64,000 nt of DNA from Bacteroidota bacterium (lineage in GTDB: Bacteria; Bacteroidota; Bacteroidia; AKYH767-A; OLB10): positions 466,998 through 530,997 of the forward strand of contig JADKDR010000001.1 in NCBI GenBank assembly GCA_016714535.1, written 5' to 3'. A model generated the notes under the pieces. That model was not told the origin of the DNA. It saw only the letters and a program-made list of their open reading frames with translations, and ran no database searches. A program made the position numbers and the translations under genes. This document shows positions 10,915 to 51,216 of the stretch, one piece after another. Each line of letters opens with the position of its first letter. Within the stretch, counting starts at the first letter, position 1.

Positions 10915-12786
10915 ATGATTCAGAAAAATTTCAGTTTACTTATGGATAAGCAGACACAAACCCTTCAACAGGTAATTATCAAATTTGCAGGAGACAGTGG
11001 CGATGGTATGCAACTTACCGGCACACAATTTACAAATACGACTGCCTTGTTTGGAAATGACTTAAGTACATTTCCTGATTTTCCGGCAGAGATACGTGCA
11101 CCTCAAGGAACATTAGCTGGTGTTTCGGGGTATCAGCTGCATTTTGGTTCGGTCAACATATACACTCCAGGTGACAGCTGCGATGTACTTGTAACCATGA
11201 ATGCCGCAGGCCTAAAAGCAAATATAAAAAATGTAAAAAAAGGAGGCACCATCATTGCCAATACAGATGGCTTTGATCCAAAAAACCTACGATTGGCCCA
11301 CATACCCGAAGCTGAAAATCCGATAGAAAATGGATCGCTGGATGGGTACAAGCTTATAAAAATTGATGTAACCAAACTTACCCGCAGTGCACTCGAAGGC
11401 AGCGGCCTTGGAACCAAAGAGATTGATCGCAGTAAAAATATGTTTGTGTTAGGATTCCTTTATTGGATGTATAACCGTGACCTTACCCTGTCGATAAAAT
11501 TTCTTGAAGAAAAATTTTCAAAGAAGCCGGATATACTTGCCGCCAATATTAAGTTGTTGCAAGCAGGTTATGCATATGGTGAAACAACGGAGACTATCGA
11601 AACACGCTTTCAGGTAAATCCTGCGCCTATGAAGCCCGGCATTTACCGCAATATTATGGGCAATCAGGCATTGGCTATAGGTCTGGTAGCTGCAAGTGAG
11701 CAAAGTAAGCTGCCACTTTTTTATGGAACCTATCCTATAACTCCGGCTTCCGATATTTTGCACGAATTATCTAAATATAAAAATTTCGGAGTACGCACTT
11801 TTCAGGCAGAAGATGAGATAGCAGCAATTTGCAGTGCTATTGGAGCAAGTTTTGGCGGTGCCTTGGGAATTACTGCCTCGTCAGGTCCGGGTATAGCCTT
11901 AAAGGGCGAAGCTATGGGCCTTGCAGTCATGCTCGAATTACCTTTGGTAATTTGCAATATACAACGTGGTGGACCCTCTACCGGCCTGCCAACCAAAACC
12001 GAACAAAGCGATTTGTTGCAAGCCATGTATGGCCGCAATGGAGAAGCACCTATGCCTGTGATAGCTGCATCAACACCAGCCGATTGCTTTCATGTAGCAT
12101 TAGAAGCTTGCCGCATAGCAGTTGAGTTTATGACCCCGGTAATGTTACTTAGCGATGGTTACATTGCAAATGGAGCCGAACCATGGCAGTTTCCGCAACA
12201 AAAAGATTTGCCCGCTATAAACGTTTCTTTTTTACAAGAGAAAAATGGGGATAAATTTTTGCCATACAAGCGTGATGAAAAGCTATCACGTCCTTGGGCA
12301 ATTCCCGGCACTCCGGGCTTAGAGCATCGCATTGGTGGATTAGAAAAACAACACGAAACAGGAAACATTAGTTACGACAATGAGAATCATGAGTTCATGG
12401 TAAAATTGCGTCAGAGTAAGGTTGATAAAGTGGCCGATTATATTCCGTTGCAAAAAATGGATAATGGAAATGAAAAAGGAAAATTGCTGGTAGTTGGTTG
12501 GGGAAGCACCTATGGCGCCATAAAAAGTGCAGTATTGCAGGCGCGTGCCAAAGGATACGATGTTAGTCATGCACATATAAAATACATTTCGCCTTTCCCA
12601 AAAAACTTAGGAGAGTTGTTTTATAATTTCGAAAAAATACTTGTTCCCGAAATGAACACAGGGCAATTAATCATGATGATTCGCAGTAAATTCCTGGTGC
12701 CTGCTGTTGGGTTAAATAAAATAAAAGGAATTCCATTTGAAGCAGGTGAGATTTTAAATAAAATAGAAGAAATGATAGGGCAATAA
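10915..12786 (+). CDS. korA: 2-oxoacid (2-oxoglutarate):ferredoxin oxidoreductase subunit alpha.
   Basis: 623 aa. The N-terminus IIKFAGDSGDGMQLTGTQF is characteristic of KorA/OorA. Followed directly by the beta subunit. Confidence 0.85.
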   Translation: MIQKNFSLLMDKQTQTLQQVIIKFAGDSGDGMQLTGTQFTNTTALFGNDLSTFPDFPAEIRAPQGTLAGVSGYQLHFGSVNIYTPGDSCDVLVTMNAAGLKANIKNVKKGGTIIANTDGFDPKNLRLAHIPEAENPIENGSLDGYKLIKIDVTKLTRSALEGSGLGTKEIDRSKNMFVLGFLYWMYNRDLTLSIKFLEEKFSKKPDILAANIKLLQAGYAYGETTETIETRFQVNPAPMKPGIYRNIMGNQALAIGLVAASEQSKLPLFYGTYPITPASDILHELSKYKNFGVRTFQAEDEIAAICSAIGASFGGALGITASSGPGIALKGEAMGLAVMLELPLVICNIQRGGPSTGLPTKTEQSDLLQAMYGRNGEAPMPVIAASTPADCFHVALEACRIAVEFMTPVMLLSDGYIANGAEPWQFPQQKDLPAINVSFLQEKNGDKFLPYKRDEKLSRPWAIPGTPGLEHRIGGLEKQHETGNISYDNENHEFMVKLRQSKVDKVADYIPLQKMDNGNEKGKLLVVGWGSTYGAIKSAVLQARAKGYDVSHAHIKYISPFPKNLGELFYNFEKILVPEMNTGQLIMMIRSKFLVPAVGLNKIKGIPFEAGEILNKIEEMIGQ

Positions 12787-12905: not shown

Positions 12906-13943
12906 ATGTCAAGCAAGCCAAATTCGTTAACGACCTTTACGTCAAAAGAATTAGTAACCGATCAGGATGTGCGCTGGTGTCCGGGGTGTGGAGATTACTC
13001 CATTTTAAAACAGGCACAAACTGTTATTCCTGAATTAGGAATACCACGCGAGAATATTGTATTTATATCCGGTATAGGATGTTCATCGCGCTTTCCCTAT
13101 TATATGGAAACATATGGCATGCACAGCATACATGGCCGTGCTATGGCATTTGCCAGTGGAATTAAAAGTACCCGGCCAGAATTAAGCATATGGGTAGTAA
13201 CAGGCGATGGCGATGCCATGTCGATTGGCGGCAACCATTTTATACATATGATGCGCAGAAATTTTAATCTGAATATTCTGTTATTCAATAATCAGATTTA
13301 TGGATTAACCAAAGGGCAGTATTCACCAACTAGCGAAGAGGGCAAAATCACAAAGTCGACACCTTATGGCTCACTCGATCATCCTTTTAATCCAATAGCA
13401 CTTGCTATGGGCGCTGATGCCACCTTTGTAGCACGCAGTATGGATCGCGATCCGGTACATTTGAAAGATATGCTTCGCAAAGCACATGCTCATAAGGGCG
13501 CCTCGTTTGTCGAGATTTATCAAAACTGCAATGTTTTTAACGATGGTACATTTGAAATTTTTACCGAAAAATCTTCGAAGAAGCAAGAGACCTTAATGAT
13601 AGAACATGGCAAACCACTTGTGTTTGGCGCTACTAGTGAAAAGGGAATCAAGCTTGATGGATTTACACCAACCATTGTTGATATTGGTGACAGCGTTAGT
13701 GTTGACGATTTATGGGTGCATGATGAAACCGACCGTGTAAAGGCGGGAATCATTTCTCGCTTTTTTGATAATCCAATGACTGACGGACATTTTCCACGTC
13801 CATTTGGAATTTTCTGGCGCGAAAACCGCAAGTGCTACGAAGATGATTTGAATCAACAAATACAAGATGTGATAACTAAAAAAGGGAATGGCAAACTAGA
13901 TGACTTGCTGCGTGGCAGGGATGTTTGGGAAATCAAAGCCTAA
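12906..13943 (+). CDS. korB: 2-oxoacid:ferredoxin oxidoreductase subunit beta (TPP-binding).
   Basis: 345 aa. Contains the TPP-binding GDGD motif (WVVTGDGDAMSIGGNHFIH). Operonic with korA. Confidence 0.85.
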   Translation: MSSKPNSLTTFTSKELVTDQDVRWCPGCGDYSILKQAQTVIPELGIPRENIVFISGIGCSSRFPYYMETYGMHSIHGRAMAFASGIKSTRPELSIWVVTGDGDAMSIGGNHFIHMMRRNFNLNILLFNNQIYGLTKGQYSPTSEEGKITKSTPYGSLDHPFNPIALAMGADATFVARSMDRDPVHLKDMLRKAHAHKGASFVEIYQNCNVFNDGTFEIFTEKSSKKQETLMIEHGKPLVFGATSEKGIKLDGFTPTIVDIGDSVSVDDLWVHDETDRVKAGIISRFFDNPMTDGHFPRPFGIFWRENRKCYEDDLNQQIQDVITKKGNGKLDDLLRGRDVWEIKA

Positions 13944-13977
13944 AATATTTTTTTAGTAAACTAAAAATAAAAATTTT

Positions 13978-14010
13978 GGCGGTGATGTCGTTTGGGTTGA
14001 CAGTCACCGC
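13978..14010. terminator. Hairpin (GCGGTGA-18 nt loop-TCACCGC) with flanking A/T runs. Candidate bidirectional terminator downstream of korB and ancestrally of tonB.
   Basis: Inverted repeat seen directly, flanked by aaaaataaaaatttt on the left and ttgaattaaaa on the right. Confidence 0.4.
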
Positions 14011-14215
14011 TTTGAATTAAAACTACCCCTTTTAATTTTTTATATGATTGAAAAGTATCATTGTCAATTTTTTTGTAGTGCTTTCAAGTACAATGTAATA
14101 ACGATTGACTTTATACTTTGTTTTATTGTTAAGCATTTTTTAACGGTACTAAGTTTTTGCCTCTTTGTATAATAGTACGAACGCATTTCATAGTTCGTTA
14201 GTGCATATTCAAATT
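13978..14215. repeat. Copy 1 of a ~235 bp direct repeat. Part of a decayed ~870 bp segmental duplication of the tonB 3' flank.
   Basis: About 85-90% identical by eye to 14847-15085. Shared strings include atgtcgtttgg, ttgaca, tcaccgct, gaattaaaactaccccttttaattttttatatg, tgttttattgttaagcatt, gcctctttgta and agtacgaacgcatttca. Confidence 0.6.
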
Positions 14216-14400
14216 TTTTTTTATTTTTAAAGCAAGTTCAATTTAACATTTAAACGTTGGCTGATTTGTACTTCTGGTTTCTATTTAGGTATTGCGCAAA
14301 TCAAGCGGATAGCATTTCAAAATCAACTGCTGCTTTCCGTCCGCAGTTGAAATGTATATGGTTAATAATTTTGTAAAACAAAAAAGTTCCAGGAGGCTAT
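14216..14400 (-). pseudogene. Degenerate remnant of the tonB 3' coding end (duplicate of 15089-15270).
   Basis: Copy-1 sequence ttctggtttctatttaggtattgcgcaaatcaagcgg...tttcaaaatcaactgctgc...cagttgaaatgtatatggtt parallels the tonB end ttcctggtttccatttaggcatgatgccaattaatcgtgc...tttcaaaatcagctgctcc...cttcaatgccattaatggtt. No intact ORF. Confidence 0.4.
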
Positions 14401-14808
14401 AAAATCAAAATCGAATTCATGTTGCTTTTTTATTGCAGAAACTTCCAGCTACATATTTTGAATTTTTTACTTCATAGAGAATCCGATAAAAATAATTTTT
14501 CATTCAGTTCATTAATTATTCTTAGAAGATAGCAGGCCATCCTATAGTTGACGTGAGCTGCAAGCTTATGCTAGCCATGCTAATGTTTAATAAAACTAAC
14601 AGTAACAGAATTTTGAAAACAAGAAAACTAGAAGATAAATTATTTGCTGGGACGAGCTAAACGCTCGCGCCAGCAGCGGATCTAGATGAGGATATTTCAT
14701 TACAAGGCCTATTAAAAAATCTATAAACGCCTTTACCTTTTATTTGAAGTAAAAGATTTTCTTGGTTACCTATAAATAAGGAATCCGAATTACTTCGGAT
14801 TTTTTTGT
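14380..14808 (+). ncRNA. Candidate small transcript or sRNA. Bacteroidetes-type -7 box TAATTTTG at 14366-14373, internal GC-rich hairpin at 14646-14674, intrinsic terminator at 14781-14808.
   Basis: Motifs seen directly. The 14646-14674 hairpin is GCTGG-GA-CGAGC-taaac-GCTCG-CG-CCAGC. A 37-codon ORF at 14419-14532 is not convincing as a coding sequence. No known RNA family recognised. Confidence 0.2.
14781..14808 (+). terminator. Rho-independent terminator.
   Basis: Stem AATCCGAA/TTCGGATT with a 4 nt loop, followed by TTTTTTT. Confidence 0.55.
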
Positions 14809-14846
14809 CTTTGTTGCAACTTAAATATGCACCAATAAAAAAGCGG

Positions 14847-15085
14847 AGATGTCGTTTGGTTTGACAATCACCGCTTAGAATTAAAACTACCCCTTTTAAT
14901 TTTTTATATGTTAGAAAAGTTATATTGTCAATTTTTTGTAGTGCTTAATTGGCAAGTACATTATTAGAACGATTGGCCTTATGCTTTGTTTTATTGTTAA
15001 GCATTATTTAACGCTACCAAGTTATTGCCTCTTTGTATGAAAGTACGAACGCATTTCAATTTTCGTTAGTGCCATCCGCAAAGTT
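14847..15085. repeat. Copy 2 of the ~235 bp direct repeat. This is the functional tonB 3' flank, including a terminator hairpin at 14847-14882 read on the minus strand.
   Basis: Matches 13978-14215. The minus-strand hairpin AAGCGGTGA...TCTCCGCTT is followed by TTTTTTATT. Confidence 0.6.
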
Positions 15086-15088
15086 TTT

Positions 15089-15907
15089 TTATTTTGTTTT
15101 AAATGCAATGGGTAAGTTCATAATTACATTAACACTTTGCCCGTTCTGAATTCCTGGTTTCCATTTAGGCATGATGCCAATTAATCGTGCAGCTTCCTTT
15201 TCAAAATCAGCTGCTCCTGCTACCCCTCTTAAAACTTCAATGCCATTAATGGTTCCGTCTTTTCGTACCACAAAACTCATATACACAGTTCCTTCTGCAC
15301 CTATCTCAAGCAGGTGGCGTGGGTACTTTACCTTGCTCTGAATAAACTGCAACATAGCTTCATATCCTCCGGGATACTCCGGCATATTCTGTACAACACG
15401 ATGATTGGTATTGTTGCCAACATCTGTTGAGTCTATACCCTTGCCTCCGCTATTATCAATAATTGCAAGACTATCAGTACCCTTGCCCGTTGAGCCGCTC
15501 GTATTAACAGACTTGTCGTCCAGATTTAGCTTTGCCAGATCATCGTCATCTGCATTGAGCGAATCGTCTGCAACAATCAAAGGTTGTAAATTTTCTTTGG
15601 GTGCTGGTGCAGGCGCAGCAGCTTGTTCTTGTTTAGGCGTTGCCAACTCCTCCTTTGGCGCTATAAAAATGTCTTCCATAATATGCGGAATGCTTACAAA
15701 TTTATCTTGCACATTGGTAACCGGATTAAAATATTGCCATGCAAATGCCATAATAATTGCAGTAGCTATCAATCCATAAGCAGCTAACATCCCTTTTACC
15801 GTGCGCGCAGCTGCATTTGTGCGCAACTCATATGCTCCGTATGCTTTGTTCTTGTTTTCGAAAAGTTGGTCACACCAGCCTTTCGAATAAATGCCTTGTT
15901 GTTTCAT
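15089..15907 (-). CDS. tonB: Energy transducer TonB.
   Basis: 272 aa with an N-terminal TM anchor, a Pro/Ala-rich linker (AAAPAPAPKE) and a TonB C-terminal domain (GAEGTVYMSFVVRKDGTINGIEVLRG). Confidence 0.8.
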   Translation of the reverse strand: MKQQGIYSKGWCDQLFENKNKAYGAYELRTNAAARTVKGMLAAYGLIATAIIMAFAWQYFNPVTNVQDKFVSIPHIMEDIFIAPKEELATPKQEQAAAPAPAPKENLQPLIVADDSLNADDDDLAKLNLDDKSVNTSGSTGKGTDSLAIIDNSGGKGIDSTDVGNNTNHRVVQNMPEYPGGYEAMLQFIQSKVKYPRHLLEIGAEGTVYMSFVVRKDGTINGIEVLRGVAGAADFEKEAARLIGIMPKWKPGIQNGQSVNVIMNLPIAFKTK

Positions 15908-16062
15908 CTTCTTTTTTTTTGAGTGGTTTAATCATAAGATGAAAAGGCATTTAATTTTCCATAAGCAACTATAATAACATCATGTTTAGTTACATAATTT
16001 TGACAAACGAATAATGGGAAACTAAAATGTGCAGGGTTTGATTTTGCAGGAGCACGAAAAAT

Positions 16063-17049
16063 TTACCGGTAAACTTCGGTAGCCCCTGACCCAAAGCGCA
16101 AGCTATCAGCATCGCGAAATCTAAGAAACGTAAATTGCCTTAACTCTTCTCTTATTAATCGTTTCAGCACTCCGTCCCCAACTCCATGAATAAAAATAAT
16201 TTGCTCTCCATTCTTAACTATAAAGTTGTTAAGAGCCATCTTAAACGCTTGCATCTGATGCCAAATGATTGTTTCGTTAGGGGTGTTATTGGTGTTCACC
16301 TTCAGCGCTTCGGTATGCAAATCAACAACAACCGGAGCTGACAGTTCTCTTTGATACGAAACATCCTTAATGGGAACGTGTTTGATGGAGCCCAGATTTT
16401 TTAATAGTTCAATATCTATTTCTTCTTTTATAAAGTTATAGAGTAACTGCATGCGCACAAACGCAAATCTACCTTTATGCTGATGGTCAACCACATCACG
16501 CCCGGGCATTTGAAAAGGGATAGTGCTTGCTTGGGGACGATAATAGTTAGTCAAATTATTGTCGAGCAAAAGCAAATCAACTTGCAGTGCACTAACCTGC
16601 GAAAAATATTTTCTTTCCTTGTTATCAATAACCTTATACGTTCCAGATTCAATCAACTCTAAACACAATGGAATTTTGGGCTCAACAGCTAATGAAACAC
16701 CAATGGCTATGCGGCAGTTAGTCCGGTTTACAATAGCTATTTCTATCGGCCCCAGATTAATCTGCGTATCGTCAGCGGGCAGGGATATCAATGCCACAGT
16801 TCCATCAGGCGCAAGGCTGGTATACTTATCTGCTGCTTGCTTTACTGTTTCTTCGTTTTCTCGTTCACGAAAAATACTTTCCACAGCAGCAGGTTTTATG
16901 AATACTGCGGCTAACTCATTTTCCGAAACATCGATAGGAAAGTCGCCATCCACTTCAACCTTTACCGAACCATCCTTATTATAAGACAGTATCGTTCCTT
17001 CTAATTTTTCGTTTTTAAAGGTTACAAACTCACCTGCTTTAAATTTCAT
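16063..17049 (-). CDS. DUF2027-like protein with a C-terminal Smr domain.
   Basis: 328 aa with a C-terminal Smr-like segment (VVVDLHTEAL...IIFIHGVGDGVLKRLIREEL). Confidence 0.65.
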   Translation of the reverse strand: MKFKAGEFVTFKNEKLEGTILSYNKDGSVKVEVDGDFPIDVSENELAAVFIKPAAVESIFRERENEETVKQAADKYTSLAPDGTVALISLPADDTQINLGPIEIAIVNRTNCRIAIGVSLAVEPKIPLCLELIESGTYKVIDNKERKYFSQVSALQVDLLLLDNNLTNYYRPQASTIPFQMPGRDVVDHQHKGRFAFVRMQLLYNFIKEEIDIELLKNLGSIKHVPIKDVSYQRELSAPVVVDLHTEALKVNTNNTPNETIIWHQMQAFKMALNNFIVKNGEQIIFIHGVGDGVLKRLIREELRQFTFLRFRDADSLRFGSGATEVYR

Positions 17050-50466: not shown

Positions 50467-51216
50467 TTACCAGTTTTTGCTTATTGATGTTCTTACTGCT
50501 TCCTTCTTTTGCATTTTCTTTTGCAAATCCTTTTCATCATCTTTCAGTGCCTGCAGCATTCGCTCAGCATCTTCTTTAGATATTTTTGGCTTTTGCTGCT
50601 CTTGCTGTTTTTGTTGTTCCTTTTGTTGTTCTTTATTTTGTGCCTGCTGTTCTTGCTGTTGTTGTTGATCTTTTTGATCCTGCTTTTGATCCTGCTTTTG
50701 ATCCTGCTTCTGTTCTTGTTTCTGGTCCTGCTTATTCTTGTCGTTCTTATTTTGTTGTTGCTGTTGTTGCTGCTGTTGTTGCAGTTTGCTCATGGCATAG
50801 GCCAGGTTGTAACGCGTTTGTTCATCCTTCGGATTGAGACGCAACGATTCTTTTAACGCACTTACACTCTCTTCATACTTTTCCTGTTGCATCAACGAAT
50901 TTCCCATATTGTGATACGCCTTCGCTTTTACATCCTTAGGTGCTTTGCTATTAATGGTACTTTGAAATTGACTACTCGCCTCATCAAACTTCTTTTGCTT
51001 GTACAAGGCATTGCCAAGGTTATAGGTACCTGCCGATGAACCACTATTGGCATCCAGGGCCTTGCGATATTGTGTTTCGGCCTCGTTGTATTTTTTGCTG
51101 TTATACAACTCATTCCCTTTGCGCACATTCTTTTTTTCTTCCGTAGTTTGTTGCGCAATCAATTTCATGCCTGCAAGCAGGCATGTCAACATTAGTATAT
51201 ACTTTCCCAATTTCAT
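50467..51216 (-). CDS. batC: BatC-like TPR protein with a Gln/Lys-rich low-complexity C-terminal region.
   Basis: 249 aa. Signal/TM at the N-terminus, TPR repeats, then QQQQQQQQNKNDKNKQDQKQEQKQDQKQDQKQDQKDQQQQQEQQAQNKEQQKEQQKQQEQQKPK. Confidence 0.7.
   Translation of the reverse strand: MKLGKYILMLTCLLAGMKLIAQQTTEEKKNVRKGNELYNSKKYNEAETQYRKALDANSGSSAGTYNLGNALYKQKKFDEASSQFQSTINSKAPKDVKAKAYHNMGNSLMQQEKYEESVSALKESLRLNPKDEQTRYNLAYAMSKLQQQQQQQQQQNKNDKNKQDQKQEQKQDQKQDQKQDQKDQQQQQEQQAQNKEQQKEQQKQQEQQKPKISKEDAERMLQALKDDEKDLQKKMQKKEAVRTSISKNW
50640..50790. repeat. Coding tandem repeat (12 nt period tcctgcttttga x ~5, plus a CAG/CAA-type tract) inside batC.
   Basis: Seen directly on the plus strand (ctgcttttgatc ctgcttttgatc ctgcttctgttc ttgtttctggtc...), followed by ttgttgctgttgttgctgctgttgttgc. 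Confidence 0.5.

Follow-up and report, generated by a model that had tools for sequence, protein, structure and literature searches.

Several enterobacterial sRNAs (small RNAs), including CpxQ, SdhX, DapZ and MicL, are derived from the 3′ UTR (untranslated region) of an mRNA and share the intrinsic terminator of the parental gene, and others, such as OmrA/OmrB and the Qrr sRNAs, are paralogues that arose by local duplication. A duplicated gene end is also left behind when an element integrates into the 3′ end of a gene, as e14 has done in icd of E. coli. To our knowledge, few sRNAs are known in the Bacteroidota. The class of 3′UTR-derived sRNAs, which lie in the 3′ region of a coding gene and share the terminator of the parental mRNA, is recognized in this phylum, with 21 UTR-derived sRNA candidates in Bacteroides thetaiotaomicron (PMC7366714). 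In the present study we analysed a stretch of 64000 nt (hereafter the window) from a Bacteroidota MAG (metagenome-assembled genome; contig JADKDR010000001.1, positions 466,998-530,997), in which a non-coding unit of ~240 nt occurs twice between the convergent genes korB and tonB, once as unit B in its ancestral position behind tonB and once as unit A, an orphan copy behind korB. This unit probably represents a selected structured non-coding RNA element in two paralogous copies, and we tentatively favour the view that it is a lineage-restricted, tonB-sense 3′UTR-derived sRNA, which would act independently of the tonB coding sequence.

Like the 3′UTR-derived sRNAs, the unit starts at or just after a stop codon and ends at a terminator composed of a hairpin and a U run, is conserved far above neutral sites, and is predicted to form hairpins with invariant single-stranded stretches. 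It differs from them in being long (~240 nt) and known here from sequence alone, in having no kinship by sequence or in Rfam with a described sRNA, and in that one of its two copies persists away from the parental gene. As with OmrA/OmrB and Qrr, two direct-repeat copies lie within 1 kb, are both under selection and have diverged chiefly in the linkers; unlike those sRNAs, a coding fragment was co-duplicated, and the new copy lies behind the convergent korAB, so that by default the two copies face opposite transcriptional contexts. The locus also resembles e14/icd, with an intact gene end, a displaced and decaying copy in direct orientation and foreign sequence between them. In contrast with e14/icd, there are no integrase or mobile-element hallmarks between the copies, and the terminator and spacer have stayed with copy B, whereas copy A is fused to the korB flank. 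We therefore rejected an att (integration-site) duplication of the gene 3′ end, as the ~400 nt between the copies contain no integrase and no ORF (open reading frame) of more than 39 aa (amino acids).

Pairwise alignment, a repeat search and blastn of each copy against the whole window were concordant on the repeat. In the blastn search 13979-14334 matched 14843-15218 at 78.2% identity over 377 columns (E=3e-83); the 64 kb hold exactly two copies, all remaining matches having E values of at least 0.026. The repeat search returned direct repeats at 13979-14073/14843-14937 (91%) and 14085-14204/14953-15072 (87%), spaced by 864-868 bp, with a third pair at 14299-14334/15183-15218 (75%) within the tonB coding end. 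These data bear out an earlier sequence-only reading of this DNA, which had described two direct repeats of ~235 bp between the convergent genes; comparison of the region with itself gave one off-diagonal match only, far above chance. The same reading had proposed a segmental duplication of ~870 bp, which does not stand, because 870 bp is the spacing and the duplicated piece measures only ~360-400 bp, i.e. the ~240-nt unit (the first part of each copy) together with the last 35-50 codons of tonB, which in copy B are the true C-terminal coding sequence. A tandem duplication of ~870 bp was likewise rejected, since the homology covers only 13979 to ~14335-14381 of the repeat period, the other ~460 bp of the 868 bp being unique sequence (14382-14777) and a single-copy stretch (14778-14842) with the displaced korB terminator. 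The claimed homology with the tonB end (to ~15270, with a decayed counterpart at 14216-14400) is present, but is clear only to ~14335/15218 and continues faintly to ~14381. Copy B starts at 14843 and not at 14847, and the hairpin and U tract that had been placed at 14847-14882 were located at 14842-14875 and, on the tonB strand, at 14834-14841 respectively.

Searches of 5.8 billion protein sequences yielded a single close relative, represented by three Logan contigs (L005-L007), with amino acid identities of 78% for TonB and 99% for KorB. The clade is isolated, as the next identities are 84% for KorB and at most 52% for TonB, and a scan of GTDB genomes with TonB found only relatives at 29-44% identity. 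In L005-L007 the two genes are 334 bp apart and enclose a single unit (~8813-9075 in L005), and the order is tonB stop codon, unit, hairpin H1 with U run, spacer of ~35 nt, korB-facing hairpin with U run, ~30 nt and korB stop codon. In the window, the korB-facing hairpin and the spacer lie beside unit B (14778-14842), and unit A abuts the korB flank directly, beginning 35 nt after the korB stop codon with no terminator hairpin between them in a terminator scan; the korB-type terminator is now separated from korB by an insert of 835 bp. Given the ancestral layout seen in L005 and the position of the hairpin and spacer, the comparison indicates that a block of ~835 bp, comprising unit A, the tonB 3′ fragment and a unique region (region X), is inserted between the korB stop codon and its terminator, and is thus not a simple tandem duplication. 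At its left edge (13978) this block begins precisely where the H1 terminator stem has its base, and from there the copied segment runs back into the tonB coding sequence. A strong hairpin at the breakpoint may point to illegitimate recombination promoted by that hairpin; an RNA-templated (cDNA-like) copy of the mRNA 3′ end is much less likely.

The unit at the orthologous site in L005-L007 also bears on trivial explanations. A mobile repeat such as a MITE (miniature inverted-repeat transposable element) was rejected, the unit being found at that site, in only two copies in 64 kb, and not in 19 other loci, plasmids, phages or metagenome pattern scans. It is scarcely credible that the repeat is an artefact in which MAG assembly joined two strain haplotypes in tandem, or that it reflects chance similarity. 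The source is indeed a MAG and the region is AT-rich, but low-complexity similarity of AT-rich sequence is contradicted by E=3e-83 with two copies only, region X is unique, the tonB fragment of copy A is a pseudogene and not a second functional allele, and the unit recurs at the orthologous site on three independent Logan contigs.

The status of that fragment follows from its sequence. The minus-strand translation of the extension of copy A, AIRLICAIPK*KPEVQISQRLNVKLNL (AIRLICAIPK*KPEVQ...), aligns with residues 239-265 of TonB by tblastn, and its in-frame stop and indels identify it as a tonB 3′-end pseudogene fragment. Copy A differs from both B and L (the L005 copy) at 24% of sites in 14228-14331 and at 52% in 14332-14375. 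The A-specific changes in this remnant are spread evenly over codon positions (13/17/9), indicating neutral decay, whereas those of B and L are nearly all at third positions; this pattern also excludes a divergent functional tonB allele or a haplotype-assembly artefact.

With the remnant as a neutral yardstick, selection on the unit could be assessed within a single copy. In three-way comparisons the 240 columns of the unit carried 10, 20 and 15 changes specific to A, B and L respectively, and the 152 columns of the adjoining tonB part carried 39, 10 and 7. Copy A has thus changed at 4.2% of sites in the unit against 25.7% in its own remnant (Fisher p=7e-10), as the earlier reading had supposed in describing a unit that stayed recognizable in the duplicate while the coding part decayed, and the contrast persists when only the securely aligned remnant is counted (22/104 A-specific). 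Relative to the remnant branch (Jukes-Cantor distance 0.31), the rate of the unit is ~14% of the neutral one in A, ~21% in L and ~28% in B, the difference between A and B not being significant (p=0.09). Gene conversion between the copies was rejected, as A is no closer to B (85.5% identity) than to L (87.6%). Since, in addition, the B and L branches are about equal, the duplication appears to be about as old as the split of the two genomes.

Comparison with L005 over the whole locus agrees with this. Aligned blocks have 74-84% nucleotide identity, with third-codon-position identity of 49-69% and four-fold-site identity of 32-57%, which is near saturation. The unit, by the same comparison, shows 83-88% identity, with matches over 82-85% of its length and invariant blocks of 22-33 nt, compared with matches over 51-55% of the length in neighbouring intergenic regions and 70% in the tonB promoter region. 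The slow change of the unit beside a decaying remnant in the same copy indicates that it is functional in its own right; by these rates it is under purifying selection independently of tonB, and the orphan copy A is at least as constrained as copy B. The partial duplication amounts to a natural experiment that separates a non-coding element from its upstream gene, and, with the unit kept at 14-28% of the neutral rate while the coding fragment decayed, to an unusually clean sequence-only case for autonomous non-coding function. A separate observation is that rates are uneven along 12906-17049, amino acid identity with L005 being 99% for KorB, 97% for KorA, 78% for TonB and 75% for the Smr-domain protein, and four-fold-site identity falling from 50-57% in korAB to 32-41% in tonB/smr.

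In view of these rates, a purely cis-acting tonB 3′ UTR, such as an mRNA stability or translation element plus terminator, with copy A as a non-functional by-product, is a very unlikely role for the unit. Its position between the tonB stop codon and the terminator in B and L005, and its conservation between both genomes, would suit such a role; a by-product, however, should decay like its own remnant (39/152), and copy A, with no tonB in front of it, has the fewest changes of all (10/240), a difference that gene conversion does not rescue. Of the earlier proposal that the unit behaves as a long structured tonB 3′ UTR or a 3′UTR-derived sRNA, the location is upheld, since the tonB stop codon and H1 with its U run delimit both unit B and the L005 unit, as expected of a 3′UTR-derived sRNA, whereas the purely cis-acting version is disfavoured by the conserved orphan copy. 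The sequence of events would then be that an old partial duplication copied the unit and the tonB 3′ end, that this copy and ~400 nt of unrelated sequence came to separate the korB stop codon from its terminator, and that the coding fragment decayed neutrally while the RNA part was retained as a second paralogous copy.

Coding potential does not account for the conservation. Variable sites in the unit fall 17/20/18 by phase, with no codon periodicity, indels of 1-2 nt and 5 nt break all frames, and no ORF is common to the three copies; a short ORF (MLNNKTK...) has a start that is invariant at the nucleotide level but changes non-synonymously thereafter. A small protein gene was rejected on these grounds. 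By sequence and covariance model, the unit appears to belong to no described family. Rfam 15 gave no match to it even at E<=5 (window 13000-16500), none at gathering threshold in the whole window and none at E<=1 in L005. A profile of the three copies was negative by nhmmer on every other locus, including the next korB relatives (L008-L011) and two TonB orthologues (L022 and L023; 36-37%), distant-mode blastn against plasmids and phages gave no unit match, and an invariant 28-mer had 0 matches when metagenomes were scanned; ten matches to a two-anchor pattern (nine metagenomic and one viral) were rejected as chance by nhmmer. The next-closest korB relatives (84% and 80%) have no unit, and one 36-37% TonB orthologue has an ordinary short 3′ UTR. 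No tonB-linked or korB-linked sRNA in Bacteroidota was found in the literature. In L022 (2321-4498; TonB 37%), korB and tonB are neighbours but co-directional, with a gap of 327 nt unlike the unit, indicating that their adjacency is older than the convergent arrangement and the unit.

The structure of the unit was modelled with RNAalifold, which predicted five hairpins (H1-H5) closed by a helix between an A run and a U run on either strand. Consensus energies were -44.7 kcal/mol for the korB-sense (+) strand and -31.1 kcal/mol for the tonB-sense (-) strand, with z scores against column-shuffled alignments of -4.46 (0/300 as good) and -3.3 (1/300) respectively. Variable columns were depleted in stems on both strands, 14/134 paired columns compared with 44/110 unpaired in korB sense (p=7e-8) and 15/114 compared with 43/130 in tonB sense (p=3e-4), in a test that uses structures predicted from the tested sequences themselves. 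Single-sequence z scores were modest, alike on both strands and weakest for copy B. The invariant single-stranded blocks comprise the loop of H2 (CUACCCC/GGGGUAG), a U-rich linker and the loop of H4. A structured RNA is, in these models, the best fit for the unit.

That the unit acts as DNA, for instance as a platform for protein binding or a module for bidirectional termination or insulation, or that both strands serve as overlapping antisense 3′ ends, appears unlikely by comparison. Such a role would accommodate the near-equal folding of the two strands in single-sequence tests, terminator-like features that face both ways, invariant blocks of 22-33 nt that exceed the needs of structure alone, and the presence, after duplication, of one copy per convergent gene. 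However, no promoter region lies where two stop codons converge, ~40 nt are enough for a terminator whereas the unit has 240, and the avoidance of predicted stems by substitutions points to RNA structure.

The tonB-sense assignment is based mainly on the terminator. Among the local structures H1 has the greatest stability (-13.7 to -19 kcal/mol, z -2.5 to -5.4), and on the tonB strand it is followed directly by UUUUUUAUU in B (-13.7 kcal/mol) and by UUUUUUAUUU in L005 (-19.0 kcal/mol), so that the hairpin with directly adjoining U run of an intrinsic terminator is present in B and L, and in part in A. The terminator scanner had missed H1, the loop of which has 9 nt against a scanner limit of 8. 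Within the spacer nothing is conserved except the A run before H1, i.e. the U tract of the tonB strand, where conservation ends. As there is no other terminator between the tonB stop codon and H1, the tonB transcript of the ancestral layout is predicted to end with the unit, which in B and L should necessarily be transcribed as the 3′ end of tonB mRNA. The active species would be a tonB-sense RNA of ~240-350 nt that shares the tonB terminator and acts in trans; it would arise either by processing or from a promoter within the final ~110 nt of tonB. A box in the remnant, TGATTTTG, has one mismatch to the Bacteroidetes -7 box TAnnTTTG, and the preserved part of copy A ends ~10 nt upstream of it; it is speculative that this box is an internal promoter for the tonB-sense sRNA.

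Several observations weigh against the tonB-sense sRNA. In copy A the H1 stem is intact (-15.9 kcal/mol), but CAAAA stands between H1 and the U run. Full TAnnTTTG promoters were not found next to the unit on either strand (a motif scan with TTTG gave matches at background, none conserved), and one-mismatch -7 boxes occur 11 times per kb-strand, which places TGATTTTG at background frequency. The covariation score was matched or exceeded by 321/500 shuffles on the + strand and 194/500 on the - strand, with one double change among three sequences from two genomes. The lower consensus energy, the shuffle z score and three H3 transitions that preserve pairing as G-U favour the korB-sense strand, and as 35 nt and no terminator separate copy A from korB, it should certainly be transcribed from korAB in korB sense, unless H1 stops the polymerase.

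These observations give some credit to a functional RNA on the korB-sense strand, which we regard as a less likely but serious rival, and the main one. It would be a ~250-nt sRNA or a 3′UTR module of korAB, with H1 as a protective 5′ hairpin and a 3′ end at H5 and a U9 run overlapping the tonB stop codon, made ancestrally when transcription passes the korB terminator or starts in the spacer, and in the window as the direct 3′ UTR of korAB in the case of copy A. The better fold and stronger stem depletion of this strand are consistent with it, and copy A has retained the T9 run while losing the direct U run of the other strand; transcription of copy A from korAB would also explain why it is the best-conserved copy. 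On the other hand, the + strand is T-rich (109 T/251), which alone favours G-U pairing and lower energies, and the H3 transitions amount to three paired on this strand against one on the other, so that we considered G-U pairs too weak a basis for a strand call. The hairpin proposed as the 3′ end has little stability (-8.5 to -11.2 kcal/mol, z -1.1 to +0.35), the spacer has no conserved promoter, and in B and L005 the unit lies beyond a good korB terminator. In addition, the A run conserved before H1 is readily understood as a U tract if the opposite strand is transcribed. A combination of the two, in which unit A as korAB 3′ UTR (korB sense) and unit B as tonB 3′ UTR (tonB sense) form a sense/antisense pair in trans, is quite unlikely; the two RNAs would be ~85% complementary over 240 nt, an extended duplex could couple korAB expression to the fate of the tonB mRNA, and in the single-copy relative convergent read-through would give the coupling in cis. 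A search for targets of the H2 loop gave one site in tonB: a decamer of the tonB mRNA, AGAGGGGUAG (15220-15229), is complementary to the invariant H2 loop and stem, CUACCCCUUU, of the korB-sense unit. L005 does not share this site, having CCACACCACG there on the + strand, and we took the match to be chance.

If the tonB-sense 3′UTR-derived sRNA is correct, the unit would found a new sRNA family of two paralogues with rather long members, and might connect TonB-dependent uptake with a central ferredoxin-dependent oxidoreductase at the level of regulation. The reach of this is limited to two uncultured genomes, and the unit has no property that would set it apart from the kinds of bacterial non-coding RNA already described.

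The coordinates of the unit copies, their predicted helices and the surrounding features are collected in Table 1.

Table 1. Features of the korB-tonB region of the window (positions are those of the window)
Feature	Position	Strand	Evidence or remarks
korA	10915-12786	+	Pfam
korB, 2-oxoacid:ferredoxin oxidoreductase beta subunit	12906-13943	+	ORF; Pfam TPP_enzyme_C 5.9e-30; 99% amino acid identity to L005 orthologue
Unit A, orphan copy	13979-14226	not assigned	87.6% identity to L005, 85.5% to unit B; 10/240 copy-specific changes
Unit A, H1	13978-14011		
Unit A, H2	14014-14038		
Unit A, H3	14052-14119		
Unit A, H4	14124-14148		
Unit A, H5	14175-14204		
Unit A, T run	14216-14225		
tonB 3′-end pseudogene fragment	14227-14381	-	Clear 14228-14331, faint 14332-14381; in-frame stop, 12-nt and 4-nt deletions; tblastn
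TGATTTTG, one mismatch to -7 box TAnnTTTG	14318-14325	-	Counterpart in true tonB 15202-15209; L005 has CGATTTTG there
Region X, unique non-coding sequence between copies	14382-14777	not assigned	No ORF >39 aa
Hairpin and U run AAGGAATCCGAATTACTTCGGATTTTTTT, orthologous to korB terminator of relative	14778-14805	+	dG -11.4 kcal/mol, z -3.1; aligns to L005 9104-9128
H1 of unit B and adjoining U run, tonB intrinsic terminator (predicted)	14834-14875	-	AAUAAAAA on + strand
Unit B, ancestral position, directly downstream of tonB stop codon	14843-15090	not assigned	82.9% identity to L005; 20/240 copy-specific changes
Unit B, H1	14842-14875		
Unit B, H2	14878-14902		
Unit B, H3	14916-14987		
Unit B, H4	14992-15016		
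Unit B, H5	15043-15072		
Unit B, T run	15084-15095		
tonB (1TM_TonB_rel + TonB_C), intact	15089-15907	-	Pfam TonB_C 3.2e-14; 78% amino acid identity to P0002 of L005
Smr-domain gene, followed by tonB	16063-17049	-	ORF, Pfam

The convergent korAB (+) and tonB (-) are separated in the window by a gap of 1145 bp. The window TonB and KorB are identical to MBK8845373.1 and MBK8845372.1, respectively, encoded on a 789-kb contig of a Bacteroidota MAG, and as these numbers are consecutive, no annotated feature lies between the two genes. ARAGORN found no tRNA or tmRNA (transfer-messenger RNA).

Region X showed no similarity to tonB, to any ORF of the window or to any fetched locus. It has a G+C-richer core with a strong hairpin, GCTGGGACGAGC...GCTCGCGCCAGC (~14645-14673), and ends at the displaced korB terminator; it is closely preceded by TAATTTTG (14366-14373, + strand), the one perfect match to the Bacteroidetes -7 box in this region. 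With this box upstream and a terminator at its end, region X could be a separate + strand transcript of ~400 nt. Rfam RT-3 (RF03068) gave a weak full-length match at 14528-14684 (20 bits, E=0.09; gathering score 40.5), and an identity as RT-3 RNA was rejected, the score being half of the gathering threshold and many consensus pairs non-canonical, so that the match was taken as chance. Elsewhere in the window, Tandem Repeats Finder reported T/G/C-rich arrays of period 12 and 51 (71-94% matches) at 50594-50782, which probably represent a repetitive coding segment unrelated to the korB-tonB element.

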